This document shows positions 13,413 to 52,412 of a DNA stretch of 64,000 bases, one piece after another. The stretch lies in NCBI GenBank assembly GCA_018302545.1, contig JAGVZM010000001.1:79033-143032 (forward strand). Reading direction: 5' to 3'. This DNA is from Candidatus Woesearchaeota archaeon. GTDB lineage: Archaea > Nanobdellota > Nanobdellia > SCGC-AAA011-G17 > GW2011-AR18. Position 1 is the stretch's first letter. Every line of letters begins with the position of its first letter. The translations under genes were made by a program, and so were the position numbers. The notes under the pieces are model-generated. The model saw nothing but the letters and a program-made list of their open reading frames with translations. It ran no database searches and had not been told where the DNA came from.

Positions 13413-14201
13413 TTAATCCTTAAAACCCATCCATTTTAAGAAAGAATTAACAAAACTTGAATTAGGAGTTTGAATACTCTCCTCATATTTCAAATTTAAT
13501 AAATCAGCAGCTAACTTTTTATATTGAACAGCACTAGCACTCTTTGGATGACTTGCAACAACCGGTTGCTTAGAAACTAAAGCATGTTTAACTGCCCTAT
13601 CTTCCGGTATTACACCAATAACAGGAACATCTAACATTGCTTCTATATCCTTTAAAGAAACATCAGGATTCTTAGCATTTGTCTTAGTAACCAAAACACC
13701 TAAAATATCTTTTCTAAGTTCTTTACAAACTTTAACAGTTTTTAAAGCATCAGTCAAAGCAGGCATCTCAGGTGTTGTAACAATAACAACTTCATCCAAA
13801 GCCTTAACAACACTCAAAGCTTCTTTAGTTAAACCTGGAGCCCCATCTAAAACTATAAAATCACTATGTCCATCCAAATCTCTAACAACACCCGTCAGTT
13901 TATGATGATCTATTTTTCTAGTGTCTTTCAAAGCAATACTTCCTGGCAAGAATTTAATTCCACTGCTATGATGAAAAACAGATTCTAATGCTTCTTTTTT
14001 TCCTCTTAAAACATCATGTAAATTATGTTGATTAACAGGATTTCCTAAATACACCCCAACATTAGGAGAAGTAAAATTAGCATCAACTAAAATAACATTT
14101 TTACCAAAATAAGTCAAAGCAGCTGCTAAATTTATAGCACTAGTTGTTTTACCAATACCTCCTTTTGAAGAAATGCAACCTATAACTCTTGAGATAGCCA
14201 T
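13413..14201 (-). CDS. ParA/MinD-family P-loop ATPase
   Basis: Deviant Walker A SSKGGIGKTT near the N-terminus. 262 aa, MinD/ParA-like throughout. Confidence 0.85.
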   Translation of the reverse strand: MAISRVIGCISSKGGIGKTTSAINLAAALTYFGKNVILVDANFTSPNVGVYLGNPVNQHNLHDVLRGKKEALESVFHHSSGIKFLPGSIALKDTRKIDHHKLTGVVRDLDGHSDFIVLDGAPGLTKEALSVVKALDEVVIVTTPEMPALTDALKTVKVCKELRKDILGVLVTKTNAKNPDVSLKDIEAMLDVPVIGVIPEDRAVKHALVSKQPVVASHPKSASAVQYKKLAADLLNLKYEESIQTPNSSFVNSFLKWMGFKD

Positions 14202-14324
14202 ATTTTCTTAGTAGATTAACAATTAATAAACCTTTCCCTGAAATTCAAAAATTATAGAATTGAAAATTATTAAAAAATTATTTTTTTAGAGAGTTATACT
14301 AGAAACCCATTAGAGATATTGATA

Positions 14325-36812: not shown

Positions 36813-36911
36813 AAAAAATTATGAATATCCAATATTAATAAACTTTTCTATAATCATTATAAAATTTTACTACTTGATTAGACGAAAATAAATATTAATT
36901 GTCTATATATC

Positions 36912-38361: not shown

Positions 38362-38736
38362 GGCAAGGTACTTAACTACGGATCTATATGGAGATTAAGC
38401 CTTAAAAAGCTAAATTTCAGAGATTCTGAGGAAAGTCCGCCCACTACCTGTGTCTAATGACCTAGGTCCCAGTTTGGGGGTTGCTTACTTTGTAAGTTCC
38501 AGTAATGGAAGGCAACTTTAAAGAAACGAAACGCCCTATAAAATTGGAATGATGTAGCGAAGATTTTGGTGACAAAATCAAGATAACCTGCTGACGTCTT
38601 TATAGGAAACGATGAAACGAAAGATCCCAACCAGTGCAAGTCTTCGAGACGCTTAGTAGAATGTTAAGACAAAGTATCGCGAGAACTGCAAAATAGTTTT
38701 CGTTTGGCTTTGACAAAAGGCGGCTTATTCCTTGCC
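38362..38736 (+). ncRNA. rnpB: RNase P RNA
   Basis: P4 5' strand GAGGAAAGUCCGCCCAC and P4 3' strand ACAAAAGGCGGCUUAU (consensus ACAGAA.CCGGCUUA). P1 terminal helix GGCAAGG...CCUUGCC. Confidence 0.7.
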
Positions 38737-38746
38737 TAAAATATTT

Positions 38747-43768: not shown

Positions 43769-43816
43769 AACGATTTGAACTAGTGGGTTATTTATAAACC
43801 TTTTTATCTAAAGAAT

Positions 43817-45072: not shown

Positions 45073-45273
45073 TTATCTACGTTTATAATATAACAAACCA
45101 GCAATAACTAAAATTAAGAGAATAATTATAATCCCAACAATCATAAAAATTCCAATACTTCCAGAATTGAATGTTGTTTCTTCATTAGGAGAATCTACAT
45201 TTTTTGCTTCTTTGTTTTTGCAGTAATTATCAATAAATCTCTTGCAGAATCTAATTCTGTGTGTGTTTGCAGC
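45073..45273 (-). pseudogene. out-of-frame C-terminal membrane-anchor segment of the giant beta-helix protein (frameshift or phase-variable tract)
   Basis: In another frame (offset 1 nt) the sequence encodes ...SPNEETTFNSGSIGIFMIVGIIIILLILVIAGLLYYKRR*, a classic C-terminal TM anchor. It has no start codon of its own and overlaps the main ORF end. T5 runs lie at 45201-45205 and 45215-45219. Confidence 0.45.
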
Positions 45274-48200
45274 CTAACTCTTTGATCATTATCATGGATT
45301 TTTAAAATATAAATATCCCAATCATCTAATTCATCTGAGGTTATACCCAACTCTTGTAGGGGAACTTCAAATCTTAAGTCTATAGGAAACTCTAAAGTCT
45401 CATTTGTGAAATTTCCTCTAAATATTACCTCAAAAAAAGGCCTTCTCCCATTAGGAACTCCTGAACTTCCAGTATTCATAGTAACAACAACACTACCACT
45501 AGAATCTGTATTTGTATTGAATGTTAAAGTGGAGGTCACACCATTTGAAAATGTATTTGTAACTGTATTTGTTTGGCCTACTTGAGAATTAACATTAGTT
45601 GTTTGAGTTTCTCCAGGCTCACCAGCTTCTTGTTGCTGATTCTGATTGTTATTGCTTCTATCTGGCGCACCAGTATTTCCTGGAGAACCTCCCCCACTAG
45701 TTCCGCTAGTACTTCCTGAACTACCAGAAGAAGGAGCTGCATCAAAAGTAACAGCAGCCCAAGGACTAAAGCTAGTTAAATCTCCTATTAATCTTACAAA
45801 TTGTGCAGTTGTATTAATCTCAAAAGTATTACTTAAACTACTCCAACCATTACTATATCTAGCAACAGTTAAATTACTCTCATTAAATGTAGAATTTAAA
45901 TCTGAACTATTATAATATATAGTTAAATTATTAACACTACCATTAATACTTAAGTTATTCATAACTAATAAATTAGAAGCTATGTCACATATCTCACTAG
46001 TGTTACTACAAGTAGTTGCTGAAACTCCTTGGTTAGTTAAATCATTAGTTGCAAAGAAACTAAGATTAGTAGCATTATTAAATGTAAAATTCAAATAATC
46101 AGTTTCTATAATATCATAATTTAATGTATTAACTATCCCTCCATTAGTTATGTTTAATACTGAAGAAGTACTTGGAAGATTAGTTACATAAACTCTATCT
46201 AAAAAAGTAACATTTGCACCATCAAAATAATATTGTATTGCTCCATTACCAGAAGCATTACTATTTGTAAAATTATTCTGACTAGATATTATCTGATAAC
46301 CATATTGAGTATTATTATTAGCAACATTAGAAGTTATATCTAAAGTTGTAGTAGTATTATCTATATATAATCCTGCAGCTAAATTAAAATTAAAAGTATT
46401 ATTTGTAACATTCATATTCAAAGAATCTTCCAAATAAAGACCATAAACATTCCCATTTAATGAAGGATTATTATATATAGAATTGTTGTTTGAAGAATAG
46501 ATTTCTATTCCTTGTCCATTAGTACCATTAAAAATAGTATTAGAATATATGTTATTATTATTTGAAGAAGTACTCATGCTTATTCCTGAAGCAGAATTAT
46601 TAAATAATGTATTAGAAGATAAATCATTATTATAACTAGATGCAAAAGTTATACCTATACCTGTGCTGTGGTTTATAGTATTAGATTGATAAAAACTATT
46701 ATTAGTATTTATTGAATAAACTCCTTGAGAATTATAAGTTAAAGTATTTGAATTAAATGTTAAATTATCTGAATCACTAATATTAAGACCATTATCTAAA
46801 TTCAAATTAAGAGTATTAGAATTCAAAGTAACATTAAAATTATCTGTGATATAAATTCCATCTTGAGTATTTGAATTTGCAGTATTTGAAGTAACAACTG
46901 TATTATTAGTTGAGTTAAGATATATTCCTGTATTTGTATTTGAATTTAGAGTATTACTAATAAAAGTAGTATTATCAGAATCATAAACATAAACACCATA
47001 AACACCAGAAGTAATAATATTATTTTCAAGATATTTATTATCTGAATTATTAATCAAAATGCCATAAGTATTATTTGTAATATTTAAGTTAGTAGAAACA
47101 TTTATCCAAGCATTTCCAAGATCACTAAAATAAATTCCAGCTGCAGTATTAAGGGTATGATTCGTAAAATTATTACTATAAATAGATAAATTTTGGGCGC
47201 TACGCTCAACATATAGGCCAATATTATCATTTCCACTAAACACATTGCCATAAATAGATCCATTTCCATCAACCCAAAGACCATTATACAAATTATTTAT
47301 TAGGCTATTATTTACAAAAGTAAAGTTATTACAATCATTATCTATAAAAATTGCATCAGGAGTTTCTAAAGCGCCATTTCCTTCAAAAGTATTATTAATT
47401 AACAAAGCATTATTAGAATCATCTAACAAAACATAAACAGAATTAAAACTAATGTTATTATTTTCAACAGTAGCATTATCACTCAAACCAACATGAAGGG
47501 GATAACCCACACTAGTTCCTGTTAGGGTGTTATTATAAATAATTAAATTATGTGTAAAAAAGTGAAAGTAAAGACCATCCCTATTACCTGTAAAAACATT
47601 TCCAGTAAAATTAGTAAAGTTCGCATCTCTTGAATAAGTTCCATAAGTATTATTTTCAACCACCAGATTATCATAAATATAATTTACAGCATTAACATCT
47701 CTAATATAAAAACCAGCTGCAGCTCCAGCAGTATGATTATAAACTGAATTAGAAAATGCACTATTATTTGTACTGTTAGTAATATTAATACCAATATTCG
47801 AATTAAGATATACTGTATTTGAAGAAATAACATTATCAGAAGATAATGCAACCAAACCAATTCCATCCCTAGTATTATTATTTAACGTATTAGAATTTAT
47901 TGTTGTATTATGAGAATTAGTTAAAAATATTCCCGTATTTCCATTAAAGGCAATAGTATTTCCAGTTAAGTTAGTTGCATTTGCATTAGTTAAATATACT
48001 CCATAAGTATTATTTCCTATGTTTAGATTATTAGTTATATTAAATTGGTTCTGATCAGAGATAGAAGATAAATAAATACCAGCAGCTAAACCTCTAGTAT
48101 GGTATGTTATATTATTACCATCAATAACATTACCTGAACCTCCTCCACTACTATAAATCCCAGCCTTACTACTATTAATAATTACATTAGAAACAATAGT

Positions 48201-49013
48201 ATTATTTATGTCATTATTAATTATCCTAAACCCTGCTTGGCCGCTTTTATTCATAGTATTATTTTCGAACCTACTATCAACACTAACATCAAGATAAAAA
48301 TTAGCACTATTAGGATTCCCAACAGTAGAATAACTCAAATCACTATCAAAAATATTGTTAGTGAAATTATTATTATTACAAGAACCACCAGAGGAACCAA
48401 CCCAAAAACCATGAACAGAAGAATTAACTAGATTATTATTATCAAACAAACTATTATTCACATTATTAAGATCAATAGATGCCCAAACCGCAGTATTCAT
48501 AATAGTATTATTAAAAAAAGTAAGATTAAGTACATTTGACACAGTCGCCCCCCCAAAATCAGGTGAATCAACAGTGTTTGAAGTAACGTTTATATTAATA
48601 TTAACATTACTAATCCTGAAACCATCACCTGTAACATTATAAATAGTATTATTATAAGCAACAAGGTTTGTAGCTCCACTATCCAATGAGATACCCCAAT
48701 AAAAACCATTAAAATTACAATTTCTTATAGTTATATTGTTCCTTAGTGAAGCTTGAAAACCAATTTCAGCAAAACCCCCATCACCAAAAGCAGTGAACCC
48801 TTGACAGTCTAAAAGAATGTTATTTCCTGTAAAGCTATTAACATCAAAACAGCCTGCAGTAGTAGACACATTTTGTGTTAAAAAATAAGAATCATCCCCA
48901 GCTAGAGTTTGGCAAGAATTAATATCTGTGGCATAAACAAAAGGAATCAAAATTATAATTACTAAGAATAATAAAACCACACCCTTTTTCATATACAAGA
49001 ATAACAAAAACAA
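45195..49013 (-). CDS. giant secreted surface protein with right-handed parallel beta-helix (PbH1-like) repeats
   Basis: 1272 aa with a signal peptide and dozens of N-x-T/S-rich repeats (NNTxYGIYL, NITNN, GIxxxS). There is a G/S/T low-complexity linker before the C-terminus. Confidence 0.7.
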   Translation of the reverse strand: MFLLFLYMKKGVVLLFLVIIILIPFVYATDINSCQTLAGDDSYFLTQNVSTTAGCFDVNSFTGNNILLDCQGFTAFGDGGFAEIGFQASLRNNITIRNCNFNGFYWGISLDSGATNLVAYNNTIYNVTGDGFRISNVNININVTSNTVDSPDFGGATVSNVLNLTFFNNTIMNTAVWASIDLNNVNNSLFDNNNLVNSSVHGFWVGSSGGSCNNNNFTNNIFDSDLSYSTVGNPNSANFYLDVSVDSRFENNTMNKSGQAGFRIINNDINNTIVSNVIINSSKAGIYSSGGGSGNVIDGNNITYHTRGLAAGIYLSSISDQNQFNITNNLNIGNNTYGVYLTNANATNLTGNTIAFNGNTGIFLTNSHNTTINSNTLNNNTRDGIGLVALSSDNVISSNTVYLNSNIGINITNSTNNSAFSNSVYNHTAGAAAGFYIRDVNAVNYIYDNLVVENNTYGTYSRDANFTNFTGNVFTGNRDGLYFHFFTHNLIIYNNTLTGTSVGYPLHVGLSDNATVENNNISFNSVYVLLDDSNNALLINNTFEGNGALETPDAIFIDNDCNNFTFVNNSLINNLYNGLWVDGNGSIYGNVFSGNDNIGLYVERSAQNLSIYSNNFTNHTLNTAAGIYFSDLGNAWINVSTNLNITNNTYGILINNSDNKYLENNIITSGVYGVYVYDSDNTTFISNTLNSNTNTGIYLNSTNNTVVTSNTANSNTQDGIYITDNFNVTLNSNTLNLNLDNGLNISDSDNLTFNSNTLTYNSQGVYSINTNNSFYQSNTINHSTGIGITFASSYNNDLSSNTLFNNSASGISMSTSSNNNNIYSNTIFNGTNGQGIEIYSSNNNSIYNNPSLNGNVYGLYLEDSLNMNVTNNTFNFNLAAGLYIDNTTTTLDITSNVANNNTQYGYQIISSQNNFTNSNASGNGAIQYYFDGANVTFLDRVYVTNLPSTSSVLNITNGGIVNTLNYDIIETDYLNFTFNNATNLSFFATNDLTNQGVSATTCSNTSEICDIASNLLVMNNLSINGSVNNLTIYYNSSDLNSTFNESNLTVARYSNGWSSLSNTFEINTTAQFVRLIGDLTSFSPWAAVTFDAAPSSGSSGSTSGTSGGGSPGNTGAPDRSNNNQNQQQEAGEPGETQTTNVNSQVGQTNTVTNTFSNGVTSTLTFNTNTDSSGSVVVTMNTGSSGVPNGRRPFFEVIFRGNFTNETLEFPIDLRFEVPLQELGITSDELDDWDIYILKIHDNDQRVRLQTHTELDSARDLLIITAKTKKQKM

Positions 49014-49028
49014 CTATAAAAATCTTTC

Positions 49029-49532
49029 TTAAATTTTTAAATATTGTTTAACTTCAGTTTTTAAGTTGTCAATTAAATTTTTAACAAGTTTATCAACATA
49101 ATTTTGTTTCTCATCAGCAACATATTTTCCATACAAAGCCATACTTAATTTCTTAAATGGAGATTTACTCCACTTATCATCATAGTCTCTTTCAACTTCA
49201 ACCTTAACAGATAAATTCAAATTACCTTCCATAACCTTAGCACCATCAACATAAGTTTCCTTGCATTTACTTAATTTAAACTTAAGTTTAATAATCGCTT
49301 TATTATAATCATCTAATTTTTTATCAGCAGCCCATTTTACTGTTAGACTCTTTAAACCACCAGAAGATTCATCTTTATACTCCTTTTCATCTATATCATA
49401 ATCATATCTTTCTAAAAAATTCCTAACTAAAGAAAAGAATTCTTTAAAATCAAAAACTCCTTTATAAGAAATCTCATCTTCTTTAATTAATCTAGAGATA
49501 TAATTGGCCATGAACTTTAAGACTAAAATCAA
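49029..49532 (-). CDS. hypothetical cytoplasmic protein, tandem paralog 1
   Basis: ISYKGVFDFKEF...VKVEVERD. Similar to the 49549..50055 product. Confidence 0.5.
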   Translation of the reverse strand: MILVLKFMANYISRLIKEDEISYKGVFDFKEFFSLVRNFLERYDYDIDEKEYKDESSGGLKSLTVKWAADKKLDDYNKAIIKLKFKLSKCKETYVDGAKVMEGNLNLSVKVEVERDYDDKWSKSPFKKLSMALYGKYVADEKQNYVDKLVKNLIDNLKTEVKQYLKI

Positions 49533-49548
49533 TTAATAATGCTTTCGG

Positions 49549-50055
49549 TTAAAACCTATAAAGGTTAAAGAAATTTTTAATTTCATCCATAATATTCATG
49601 CTATCATTATACAAATCAATTTTAAACTCTTCAGCTCTATCTTTCAATCCTAATTCTCTATAAATTCTAAAAATAAAACTATTTTCATCCCAGCTATTAT
49701 TAGCATTTTCAGTAAACTTAGAATTAAATTCAACTTCTATTCCACAATTATGTAACTTAAGTTTCCTTCCATCTTTTTCAACTTCAACTTCATTTAAACT
49801 ATTAATAAAAAATGTAACATTTAAATCTAATTTAAAATAACCATTCTCCCCTTCTTTACTAGCTTCCCAAAGTATCTCCAAAGTCTTGCCATTAGGTTTA
49901 ATTCTTTCAGAATATTTTTTTTCACCATTCTCACAAGGATCACTATATCCTTGATCCATAAACCATTCTCTAATTTTAGAATATAATATCTCAAGATCAA
50001 AAGTACCTTTATATTTTACTTTAGCACCACTAATTATAGACTCCTCTTTTGGCAT
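49549..50055 (-). CDS. hypothetical cytoplasmic protein, tandem paralog 2
   Basis: MPKEESIISGAKVKYKGTFDLEILYSKIREWF...VEVEKD. Paralog of its neighbours. Confidence 0.5.
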   Translation of the reverse strand: MPKEESIISGAKVKYKGTFDLEILYSKIREWFMDQGYSDPCENGEKKYSERIKPNGKTLEILWEASKEGENGYFKLDLNVTFFINSLNEVEVEKDGRKLKLHNCGIEVEFNSKFTENANNSWDENSFIFRIYRELGLKDRAEEFKIDLYNDSMNIMDEIKNFFNLYRF

Positions 50056-50093
50056 AGTGTTAAATTCAAAAAACTAATTAATAATCTTTTCTA

Positions 50094-50570
50094 TTAATAC
50101 AAATCAAGTTTCTTCTTAAAATATGAATAAACCTCTCCACCCTCTTTGGACAGAGGAATGATATATTTCTTCTTCAAAGTTCCACCAGCAACTTTTGAAT
50201 ATAATTTAAAGAAGAAAATAGACATTTTATCTTGACCATAATTATTTTTATAATCTGTAGTTAAAGTTGCTTTTATTTTTACACTGCAATCTCCAATATA
50301 GGTTGTCTTCAATTTCGTTAATTTTCTAAAAGCAGTTTCAACTTCAATTGTAAAATTAGCAAGAGGATCGATATCTTTACTCATAATAAATTTAAACCCC
50401 ATTTTATGTCCATATTGCTCTGGTTTATCCTCATATTCCTTTTCAACAAAACCATAACCTAATTAAGCAGCCAGTTCCTTAATGCCTTTATAGATTTCTT
50501 CTATATTAAACTCCACACCAGAAACAGAAATATTTCTTTTATACACATCTTTTCCTTTAGGTTTTGGCAT
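50094..50570 (-). pseudogene. tandem paralog 3 interrupted by in-frame TAA (stop at 50463-50465)
   Basis: Same-frame translation from ATG at 50570 reads MPKPKGKDVYKRNISVSGVEFNIEEIYKGIKELAA*LGYGFVEKEYEDKPEQYGHKMGFKF... N-terminal similarity to paralog 2 (MPKE..VKYKGTFDLEILYSKIREWF) spans the stop. Confidence 0.45.
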
Positions 50571-50653
50571 AATAATAATCCATTAAAAAATATATTAATA
50601 ACTCTTTCTATTAAAACAACAAACATATAAATGTTTAGGATTGACTTCAAAAA

Positions 50654-51310
50654 ATGAACTTAAGAGAATTAAATTTAAAATTAACAAGAGAGTCTTTGGT
50701 AAAGGAAACTTCAAGAGATGTATTAATAATCCAAACAATTCATACAATAGATGAATTAATAAAGATAATAAATAGATTAATAGCAAATCTAAGAGAGAGA
50801 TATGGTTATTATGCACCAAGAGCAGCAAAAGAAGAAAATGCTGAAAAATTATTAAATATAATAAATAGAAAAATTAAAGAAGATATAGGTCTTAATTTAG
50901 ATGAAGTAGATTTAGCCTCTATAATAGAACTATCAGAAGAGATAAAGAGATTAATAAATTTAAAGGAATCACAAGAAAAGTATTTAGAAAAAATAACAGA
51001 AGAAATATGTCCAAGACTAAAGAAAACAGCAACATCATTAATAGCTGCTAGGTTAGTTGATAAGGCAGGTTCACTTAAAAATTTAGCTAAATTACCTTCA
51101 TCAACAATACAAGTTTTGGGTGCAGAAAAAGCATTATTTAGGCACCTTAAAACAAAATCAAAAGCCCCAAAATTTGGTATAATATTCGCACACCAAAATA
51201 TAAGTAACTCACCTCAAACAGAAAAGGGGAAGGCAGCAAGAAGACTAGCAGCAGAAATTTCAAAATCTACAAGAATAGATTATTTCAGCAAAGATAAGGA
51301 GGAGGTGTAG
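50654..51310 (+). CDS. nop5: Nop5/Nop56/58-family protein (NOP domain only, minimal form)
   Basis: VLGAEKALFRHLKTKSKAPKFGIIFAHQNI is the NOP-domain signature. 218 aa, so it lacks the usual N-terminal domain. Upstream of fibrillarin. Confidence 0.8.
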   Translation: MNLRELNLKLTRESLVKETSRDVLIIQTIHTIDELIKIINRLIANLRERYGYYAPRAAKEENAEKLLNIINRKIKEDIGLNLDEVDLASIIELSEEIKRLINLKESQEKYLEKITEEICPRLKKTATSLIAARLVDKAGSLKNLAKLPSSTIQVLGAEKALFRHLKTKSKAPKFGIIFAHQNISNSPQTEKGKAARRLAAEISKSTRIDYFSKDKEEV

Positions 51311-51317
51311 ACTACTA

Positions 51318-52412
51318 ATGAGGGATGACAAAACCGAAAGGTTTTTAATAGTAGGGGGAGATAGAAATGAAAGTAGGGGGGTAGTTACAGATATGAGTAG
51401 AAGAAGACATAGAAGAGATAATAAGAGTTATAATCCAAGAAGTGTAAGATCCACATTAAATAATCAAGATTTCTTATCAAAACTATTACTAAAAGACCCT
51501 ACTGAGTATACTGAAGATCTTAGAAGAAGATATGCGATATCATCAATAAAAGCAGAAGAACTAACTCCAGAAAGAATAGAAGAGATAAGAGGAAATACAA
51601 CTTTTATTTATGTAATAGGCAACAAGTTAGCAGGAAAATCCAAATTAAGAGATAGAATCTACGCAGGTCTTTCAGAAGAAGACTATTCAGTTCTACCCTT
51701 AAGAGCTTCAAAAGATGCAAGCGAATCAGATACTGCAATAAGAAGACAAACACTAAAAAGACAAGAAAAAGGAGAAGTAGCTTGGGTACAAGCTGTTGAA
51801 GCTTTAAGAAATGAAGGTTTATCAGCATTAGAAAAAAAAGCATTACCTTTCTTAATGGGAACATCTAAAAGAAAAGCAGTTTTATTTGATAGACATCCCT
51901 TAATAGATACTTTAGTAAAACAGTATTTAGAAGGAGCAAACCTAGAATCAGTAGCCCAATATTTAAGAGGAAGAGACACAAAAACAGAAACAGAATTAAG
52001 TTGTTATATAAAACCAGACATTGTAATATTATTAACTTGTAATCCAAGAGAGATAATGTATAGAGAAATAATGAGAAGTAGTCATAGTAGAGAGGGAATA
52101 TCTGATGATTTCGGATCAGATTTCTTAGAAAAAACTGAAAGAGAAAAAAGAGCTTATCTAGAATTATCTGGAATAAATCCAAATACGGGAAAAATGGAAC
52201 CAGATAGTAGAATATATCCTTGTAGAATCTTCCGTTATGAAGACACAAGTAATTCTAGTATAGATTACAAAAACGAAGCAGAAGCAAGAAGAAAATTAGA
52301 AGAAGATGGCATTGAAAGAACATCAAGGATATTTAATGAAGTAATACTTCCAAATATGAATAAGGGTGGACAAAAAAACGGAAGAACTAAACCTTTAGGA
52401 TACACTGCATAA
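51318..52412 (+). CDS. P-loop kinase-like protein (thymidylate/nucleoside kinase-like core) with R-rich N-terminal and extra C-terminal regions
   Basis: Walker A VIGNKLAGKSKL (GxxxxGKS). AVLFDRHPLIDTLVKQYL resembles the dNMP-kinase DRY/DRH motif. Has 90 aa of basic N-terminal extension. Sits between nop5 and flpA, 8 nt after nop5. R/E/S-rich composition. Confidence 0.5.
   Translation: MRDDKTERFLIVGGDRNESRGVVTDMSRRRHRRDNKSYNPRSVRSTLNNQDFLSKLLLKDPTEYTEDLRRRYAISSIKAEELTPERIEEIRGNTTFIYVIGNKLAGKSKLRDRIYAGLSEEDYSVLPLRASKDASESDTAIRRQTLKRQEKGEVAWVQAVEALRNEGLSALEKKALPFLMGTSKRKAVLFDRHPLIDTLVKQYLEGANLESVAQYLRGRDTKTETELSCYIKPDIVILLTCNPREIMYREIMRSSHSREGISDDFGSDFLEKTEREKRAYLELSGINPNTGKMEPDSRIYPCRIFRYEDTSNSSIDYKNEAEARRKLEEDGIERTSRIFNEVILPNMNKGGQKNGRTKPLGYTA

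Follow-up and report, generated by a model that had tools for sequence, protein, structure and literature searches.

A tandem trio from a large unnamed protein family of DPANN archaea, with a recent nonsense allele in one copy and a variable surface-protein slot downstream

Three tandem genes and their surroundings

In this study, we analyzed a 64,000-nucleotide (nt) stretch of DNA from a Candidatus Woesearchaeota archaeon (GTDB lineage Archaea; Nanobdellota; Nanobdellia; SCGC-AAA011-G17; GW2011-AR18), which corresponds to positions 79,033 to 143,032 of the forward strand of contig JAGVZM010000001.1 in NCBI GenBank assembly GCA_018302545.1. The whole stretch is hereafter called the window, and all coordinates refer to it. 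We focused on three consecutive genes of one protein family, c3, c2 and c1, which are co-oriented on the minus strand and followed by a giant beta-helix gene (ATG at 48992). The first of them, c3 (50094..50570), was recognized by translation as a 158-codon family member that is interrupted at codon 36 by an in-frame TAA (50463..50465). The second, c2 (49549..50055), is an intact open reading frame (ORF) for a protein of 168 amino acids (aa), the best conserved of the three. The third, c1 (49029..49511), was delimited by its ORF and translation; it runs from an ATG at 49511 to a stop codon at 49031-49029 and encodes a 160-aa protein. A preliminary description of the window, made from the letters alone, had let this last gene begin at a TTG (ORF 49029..49532). 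This start was revised because the TTG lies inside a promoter-like motif and because the c1 product is on record in the database as an exact 160-aa protein. All three products are predicted to be soluble, having neither a signal peptide nor a transmembrane segment, which agrees with their earlier characterization as small cytoplasmic proteins.

Comparison of the three copies by pairwise BLASTP revealed an identity of 20-24% (E=4e-6 for c1-c2, 4e-7 for c1-c3 and 1e-3 for c2-c3). To prevent circularity, hidden Markov models (HMMs) were built for each copy solely from its orthologues in other genomes. The c1-orthologue HMM, which recognized the window's own c1 at 1.6e-60, matched c2 at 2.7e-12, and the c2-orthologue HMM matched c1 at 7.6e-10. 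The c3-orthologue HMM matched both c1 (4.6e-12) and c2 (2.3e-11), and it also detected the 35-aa fragment upstream of the TAA (3.2e-6), whose codons read MPKPKGKDVYKRNISVSGVEFNIEEIYKGIKELAA as described before. These matches confirmed both the paralogy of the genes and the membership of the pre-TAA region in c3. Thus, sequence comparison showed c1, c2 and c3 to be true but distant, anciently diverged tandem paralogues, in agreement with the preliminary description, which had placed three co-oriented tandem copies in these frames. Of the two motifs it had considered common to the copies, the N-terminal (V/I)xYKG(V/T)FD is indeed shared and homologous, whereas VEVE(R/K)D is not, since VEVERD of c1 pairs with SKFTEN of c2 in both alignments made (A1 and A2). 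No further family copy could be observed in the 64-kb window, even at E<=10 with filters switched off. A word-index search yielded four relatives of c1 and 11 of c2; the latter were 55-65% identical to c2 and were listed only as 'hypothetical protein' of Candidatus Woesearchaeota. One c2 orthologue (P0006, 65% identity) bears the Joint Genome Institute (JGI) name 'flagellar biosynthesis chaperone FliJ', a name that found no support in profile searches and was rejected.

Each of the three genes is preceded on the minus strand by an element resembling a B recognition element (BRE) and TATA box: GAAAGAGTTATTAAT (50594..50608) lies 23 nt before the ATG of c3, GAAAAGATTATTAAT (50077..50091) 21 nt before that of c2, and GAAAGCATTATTAAT (49532..49546), which contains the TTG start of the ORF list, 20 nt before that of c1. 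All three were found by motif search, by upstream alignment and as members of repeat family D1. The common motif is GAAAG-NN-TTATTAAT, 20-23 nt before the ATG, and the corresponding element of the giant gene, GAAAGATTTTTATAG, is located 21 nt ahead of its ATG. The same motif occurs at the same distance before unrelated genes starting at 14201, 36812 and 43768 (14222-14236, 36834-36848 and 43790-43804, all minus strand, found by motif search), and the overall count was nine matches against 3.4 expected. Judged by the archaeal consensus, the motif is probably the general BRE/TATA promoter of this organism, which would produce leaderless or near-leaderless mRNAs. Since each gene has its own promoter-like element, an operon of the four genes is not required. 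The sole notable repeat in the region was a 42-nt promoter-region element. Rfam gave no match at E<=1 in the trio region, and a scan for sigma-70 promoters and terminators was uninformative there, as expected for an archaeon.

With regard to the wider context, the window has a G+C content of 29.3%, and the GC content of the trio is in line with that of neighbouring genes. The protein-coding neighbours include Nop5, fibrillarin, L21e, Rpb4, S13, S4 and S11. An archaeal RNase P RNA (38395-38739) was the only Rfam match above the gathering score in the window, and ARAGORN found no tRNA gene in the 64 kb. The closest named relatives of the studied genes come from 'Candidatus Woesearchaeota' metagenome-assembled genomes (MAGs), several of them from groundwater. 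The giant gene after c1 (45195..48992, minus strand), which lies outside the family, encodes a beta-helix/NosD surface protein (Pfam Beta_helix, 6.2e-57; NosD, 1.7e-39) with a signal-peptide-like N-terminus. Its adjacency to the trio and its co-orientation were as described, but its length is 1265 aa rather than 1272 aa when counted from the ATG at 48992 instead of an upstream TTG.

The in-frame stop codon of c3

The frame of c3 consists of 35 codons, the TAA (50465-50463) and 122 further codons, so the interruption reported earlier was borne out. The same word-index search returned one relative for c3, an intact 158-aa protein (P0016) that is identical to c3 save for a Glu at the stop position. 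It is encoded on contig k141_140854 of ENA analysis ERZ4903137 (63.8 kb), which matches the window at 99.98% identity over 20.4 kb with only four differences, namely three single-nucleotide polymorphisms (SNPs) and one 43-bp indel. All three SNPs are non-synonymous (L15e N9S, c3 E36* and S4 M117T). At codon 36 of c3, this contig has GAA and the window TAA, a single G-to-T difference at 50465.

We then weighed whether c3 might actually be intact, the TAA having arisen through an error of sequencing or assembly or being decoded as an amino acid. The single base that separates the window from an otherwise identical intact gene would fit such an error. However, exact look-ups of the two truncated c3 products led to a second contig (k141_10350 of ERZ27254754, 72.3 kb), independently assembled in another ENA analysis, which agrees with the window throughout a 10.3-kb stretch (100% identity), TAA included, and differs by lacking the 43-bp deletion. 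In a third data set, the first base of a short Logan contig from SRR2090155 is 50464, directly next to the SNP, which would fit a de Bruijn-graph break at a site with two alleles. Recoding was ruled out, as TAA is the commonest stop codon in the window and terminates 25 of the 37 long ORFs, c1, c2 and c3 among them. Error or recoding therefore appears very improbable. The presence of the same TAA in a second, independent public assembly showed, as far as assembled sequences can, that c3 carries a real, very recent, strain-level nonsense allele segregating in a natural population. At least three haplotypes can be distinguished among the assemblies: GAA without the deletion, TAA without the deletion, and TAA with the deletion, the last being that of the window.

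Orthologues of c3 are intact (154-161 aa) in all other lineages that carry the trio. Thus, c3 has the properties of a pseudogene, i.e. a premature stop at a codon that the organism uses as a stop, in a frame that is kept intact in both close and distant orthologues. In the predicted c3 fold, the TAA coincides with the end of helix 1, and the first in-frame ATG after it (Met57, the start of a 102-aa ORF) would give a product without strand 1, helix 1 and strand 2. On the basis of the predicted fold, the TAA allele should therefore be null.

The 43-bp deletion, located at 45217/45218 and seen relative to the two other assemblies, frameshifts the giant gene near its 3' end. The altered protein ends in DLLIITAKTKKQKM and loses about 55 residues, including the C-terminal transmembrane anchor IGIFMIVGIIIILLILVIAGLLYYKRR. 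Two of the four differences from the 99.98%-identical contig (the c3 TAA and the deletion) are thus gene-disrupting, and the distance between them, within one cluster of co-oriented genes, is 5.2 kb. The truncated giant product of the window was not on record elsewhere in the database look-up, and for this reason the deletion may be an assembly artefact.

Synteny of the trio and the variable slot after c1

To collect lineages with the trio, identical proteins were looked up and GTDB species genomes were scanned with the c2 subfamily, which together gave 11 distinct lineages. In all 11, the genes occur in the order c3-c2-c1 on one strand, with Nop5 (Nop5/fibrillarin) divergent upstream and L21e-Rpb4-DUF655-S13-S4-S11 downstream. 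In a neighbour-joining tree, c1, c2 and c3 each formed their own clade across all lineages, implying that the triplication is old and that all three copies have been retained; the tree showed it to have happened before at least 11 Woesearchaeal lineages separated. In the ten closer lineages, the orthologues were 45-60% identical to the window's c2, 42-54% to its c1 and 33-44% to its c3, and in the more distant lineage (L019) the values were 36%, 29% and 21%, respectively. Optional insertions were also found: in seven lineages c3 is preceded by a gene for a CBS-pair/Zn-ribbon protein, and in some loci the gene for a membrane protein of the YdjM type lies 1 nt after c2.

Two side observations concern the upstream flank. 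The Nop5 gene of the window (50654-51310, plus strand) encodes only 218 aa, in which the Nop domain is present and the N-terminal domain is absent. Between Nop5 and fibrillarin lies a gene for a 364-aa protein with no Pfam match (51318-52412, plus strand), and related genomes have a thymidylate-kinase or P-loop gene (253-310 aa) at that position.

In contrast with this fixed order, the position after c1 varied considerably. It is occupied by a beta-helix/NosD gene in two of the 11 lineages (that of the window and one other) and by unrelated signal-peptide proteins in four. In another four (L013, L015, L016 and L017) it is empty, with L21e following within 39-81 nt. In the remaining one (L019), a 234-aa ORF without a predicted signal peptide is found at the contig end. 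We also observed a pair of loci (L002:4303-5466 and L003:9149-9925) whose c1-c3 proteins are identical and whose slots differ: in L003 the slot encodes a repeat-rich protein (at least 259 aa) with a signal peptide, and in L002 an 830-nt gap lacks any called gene and leads to a 110-aa ORF whose similarity to the L003 protein is confined to the tail of the latter. This difference suggests strain-level turnover or repeat collapse.

The preliminary description had proposed a functional link between the trio and the giant protein, and had asked whether homologues flank giant surface-protein genes in other archaeal genomes. According to this idea, c1-c3 would be dedicated cytoplasmic partners of the downstream surface protein, such as a chaperone, a secretion or anchoring factor, or an immunity-like protein. 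In the window, the genes are indeed adjacent and co-oriented, and the gene after c1 encodes a signal-peptide protein in six of the 11 trio lineages; yet a beta-helix protein was present in only two of the 11, and no gene at all separates c1 from L21e in four. The YdjM-type membrane protein after c2 in some trio loci also speaks for the idea, as does the presence of both the c3 nonsense allele and the anchor-removing deletion in the window haplotype. On the other hand, the TAA allele was also found alongside an intact surface-protein gene, each gene has its own promoter-like element, and the cytoplasmic tail of the giant protein is only about five residues long (YYKRR), so that a cytosolic partner would find little to bind.

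To place the trio in the family as a whole, a metagenome scan seeded with single-copy relatives gave 47 distinct loci. Most contain one family gene, three loci contain two in tandem, and three copies are found in the Woesearchaeal clade. Two context classes were seen besides that of the trio. In a first class (11 loci), formed by more distant family members, the order runs from a thermosome gene to the family gene and on through two convergent coiled-coil genes to TFE and a rhomboid gene; none of these 11 loci has a surface-protein gene beside the family gene, which again argues against a dedicated surface partner. In a second class from another clade (11 loci), a CBS/Zn-ribbon gene or a matrixin/CARDB membrane protease gene, the latter often just upstream, precedes the family gene, which is followed on the same strand by a gene for a conserved 456-467-aa protein. 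This protein has an N-terminal signal peptide, a transmembrane segment near residues 300-325 and a C-terminal domain of about 130 aa, and gave no Pfam match; its loci (L042-L046 and L052-L059, e.g. L056:2236-3612) often contain genes for the matrixin/CARDB protease, archease and RtcB in the vicinity. In two of the three context classes, the protein encoded just downstream is thus secreted or membrane-bound, which leaves such a partnership some likelihood, but the downstream proteins (beta-helix, repeat protein and the membrane protein of about 460 aa) belong to unrelated families. Since adjacency to a homologous surface-protein gene was not conserved across genomes, we consider the dedicated-partner explanation unlikely. 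Our results showed instead that the giant beta-helix gene is an occupant of a variable surface-protein slot after c1 and not a conserved partner, so the link that had been proposed was not supported.

Across all context classes and at deep divergence, the CBS/Zn-ribbon gene was the commonest immediate upstream neighbour of the family: it occupies position -1 in 12 of the 47 loci, nearly always on the same strand. In the encoded protein of about 185 aa, a CBS pair is combined with a Zn ribbon (CxxC...CxxC) at the C-terminus. Its gene was recorded at loci L002-L012, L014, L016, L017, L019, L042, L043, L052 and L062 (e.g. L006:6928-7479). None of the CBS/Zn-ribbon, YdjM and membrane-protein (about 460 aa) genes occurs in the 64-kb window.

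A large unnamed family, its predicted fold and possible function

A profile search of the kind called for in the preliminary description was run exhaustively with HMMER on 1.84 billion cluster representatives. It retrieved 1,907 of them at E<=1e-3, and 1,205 passed E<=1e-10. Members are nearly all 155-175 aa in length, match end to end and are stand-alone single-domain proteins. Those with a name are 'hypothetical protein' from Woesearchaeota or Pacearchaeota, save for one cluster labelled Patescibacteria, and the genome loci of the family belong to Woesearchaeota, Pacearchaeota and 'Nanoarchaeia' MAGs. The search showed that c1-c3 belong to a large unnamed family of proteins of about 160-170 aa whose named members are from DPANN archaea (Woesearchaeota, Pacearchaeota and Nanoarchaeia). 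The cluster labelled Patescibacteria (P0055 / P0168) is a 210-aa protein with a 52-residue N-terminal extension from 'Patescibacteria group bacterium' MAGs, and reflects either mis-binned DPANN contigs or a rare bacterial occurrence.

That no family name could be given when the sequence was first read agrees with the searches of named families. Pfam gave no match for the three copies at E<=10 and nothing beyond chance for 61 diverse family members, and NCBIfam likewise gave no match to the family beyond chance. Matches in PHROGs and PADLOC were at chance level (E >= 0.01), sequence profiles of the PDB returned only the VxVxV repeats of T4 gp5 (E>0.6), and the BFVD viral models gave no match at E<=1e-3. 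A phage or defence-system protein was rejected on the basis of the PHROGs, PADLOC and BFVD results, the conserved core synteny and a GC content equal to that of the neighbours. No domain fusion hinting at a function was found; the few longer members have N-terminal extensions or, in one case, appear chimeric. Lineage-specific conserved hypothetical protein families of DPANN archaea have been surveyed (PMC9258230, PMC8204110). The present family resembles these in being abundant, conserved, unannotated and located among core information-processing genes. It was matched to no family identifier in the titles and abstracts of the surveys, and its fold, triplication and neighbourhood are described here de novo.

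The AlphaFold2 model of c2 (predicted local distance difference test, pLDDT, 87.7; predicted template modelling score, pTM, 0.80) consists of strands at residues 3-19, 45-53, 56-69, 74-94 and 97-116 and helices at 21-34 and 127-165. The model of intact c3 (P0016; pLDDT 81.1, pTM 0.71) has the same order of elements. The predicted domain is therefore beta1-alpha1-beta2-beta3-beta4-beta5-long alpha2, with a first helix of 14 residues and a four-strand meander whose strands reach 21 residues; at the C-terminus, c2 has one continuous helix of 39 residues, where the c3 model shows three helices instead. Conservation was derived from a 61-sequence alignment (c2 numbering). The most conserved residues were E45 (100%), Y73 (97%), G17 and K160 (both 92%), Y132 (89%), Y25 (85%) and K57 (84%), followed by Y48 and W122 (both 82%), W63 and G104 (both 80%), Y37 (79%) and D72 (77%). 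Conserved Lys residues occur at positions 12, 14, 57, 67, 100 and 160. Strand periodicity suggests that one face of the predicted sheet is hydrophobic and covered by the helices, and that the other bears the conserved Lys and Glu residues.

Foldseek placed START and PYL proteins (E about 1e-3, TM about 0.2) and Cyt toxins (TM about 0.35) among the structural neighbours. It is possible to imagine on this ground that the family consists of helix-grip proteins of the START/Bet v 1/SRPBCC type that carry a hydrophobic ligand, e.g. lipids scavenged from a host; it is established that DPANN archaea generally lack lipid synthesis. This idea draws on the fold resemblance of the model. The SRPBCC/START/Bet v 1 proteins have a helix-grip beta-alpha-alpha-beta6-alpha architecture enclosing a large hydrophobic cavity, whereas the present family has two fewer strands and one fewer helix, with TM-scores of about 0.2. 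Moreover, none of the 61 members matched any family of that clan at E<=0.1, and hhalign gave a probability of 0.1% for the family profile against Bet v 1. A lipid carrier seems rather unlikely.

The predicted architecture also resembles KA1 and other small modules of the TBP-like fold, which we take to be SCOP fold d.129. Membership of KA1 itself was not supported, as there was no Pfam match and the members are free-standing, not the C-terminal domain of a kinase or methyltransferase. KA1 is a tail domain of about 100 aa, with a basic surface patch for acidic phospholipid or RNA, in contrast with the free-standing 160-170 aa, the longer strands (up to 21 residues) and the 39-residue C-terminal helix of the family. 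The TATA-box binding protein (TBP) was rejected, since each family protein has a single beta-alpha-beta4-alpha repeat, TBP has two in tandem, and no Pfam TBP match was obtained. Judged from the models, the family has a familiar general architecture without demonstrable membership of a superfamily, its likeness to KA1, START and Bet v 1 being one of fold only.

With respect to function, we propose that the proteins may be non-enzymatic modules that bind a partner or a small ligand. The long five-stranded sheet would have one face covered by the two helices and would present the other as a conserved Lys/Glu-rich surface. On that surface, E45, Y48, D72, Y73, W122 and Y132 would cluster and, together with G17, K57 and K160, form a putative partner- or ligand-binding site. 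The three diverged copies might act jointly, as a hetero-oligomer or on the same target, which is suggested by the retention of all three. The most likely functional partner would be the CBS-pair/Zn-ribbon protein, the best candidate because its gene is found directly upstream of family genes more often than any other. As the copy that appears to evolve fastest, c3 would also be the most dispensable.

Several points weigh against this proposal. The binding-module and hetero-oligomer ideas draw on the fold class, the conservation pattern and co-retention, and the residue faces and the 'cluster' were read from strand periodicity in the predicted model. A catalytic role of the invariant E45 would be just as conceivable. 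As most lineages possess only one copy, a hetero-oligomer cannot be essential to the family. Isoelectric points of 8.7, 5.0 and 9.3 for c1, c2 and c3 might recall charge complementarity in a heterotrimer, but the pattern is not conserved in orthologues and was discarded as evidence. Finally, the window has no CBS/Zn-ribbon gene. We thus hold the mechanism as worded (non-enzymatic binding modules, copies acting together and the CBS/Zn-ribbon protein as partner) only tentatively and judge it less likely than not. The explanation as a whole, i.e. an ancient trio in core synteny, a variable slot, a nonsense c3 and a binding-module function, appears moderately probable.

A different joint reading, which we regard as quite improbable, is that the family is a new class of cytoplasmic KA1-like modules of a peripheral-membrane or partner-binding type, specific to Woese- and Pacearchaeota, that act with surface or membrane proteins at the inner membrane face. 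If this were true, the partners would be the surface proteins of the c1 slot, the membrane protein of about 460 aa, the matrixin/CARDB protease and YdjM; the Woesearchaeales would have a complex of three paralogues; and the knockout of c3 together with the loss of the beta-helix anchor in one haplotype would be the joint decay of one unit.

Returning to the explanation that we prefer, the finding is real but ordinary in kind, in that a conserved hypothetical family has tandem paralogues of which one was inactivated only recently. Its practical result is a negative one, in that a variable insertion slot accounts for the adjacency to a surface protein, and what looked like a 'pseudogene' is a very recent nonsense allele at strain level. 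The family lacks both a name and a profile, and its structural relatives are too remote to hint at what it does. Given how small the genomes of DPANN archaea are, a gene that is maintained in one, two or three copies among genes for the ribosome, RNA polymerase and chaperonin, in about 1,900 clusters, is probably important to their biology. Therefore, its definition here by fold, conserved residues, paralogue structure and commonest neighbour provides a handle for annotators, and its short, soluble and well-predicted members offer a target for experiments.

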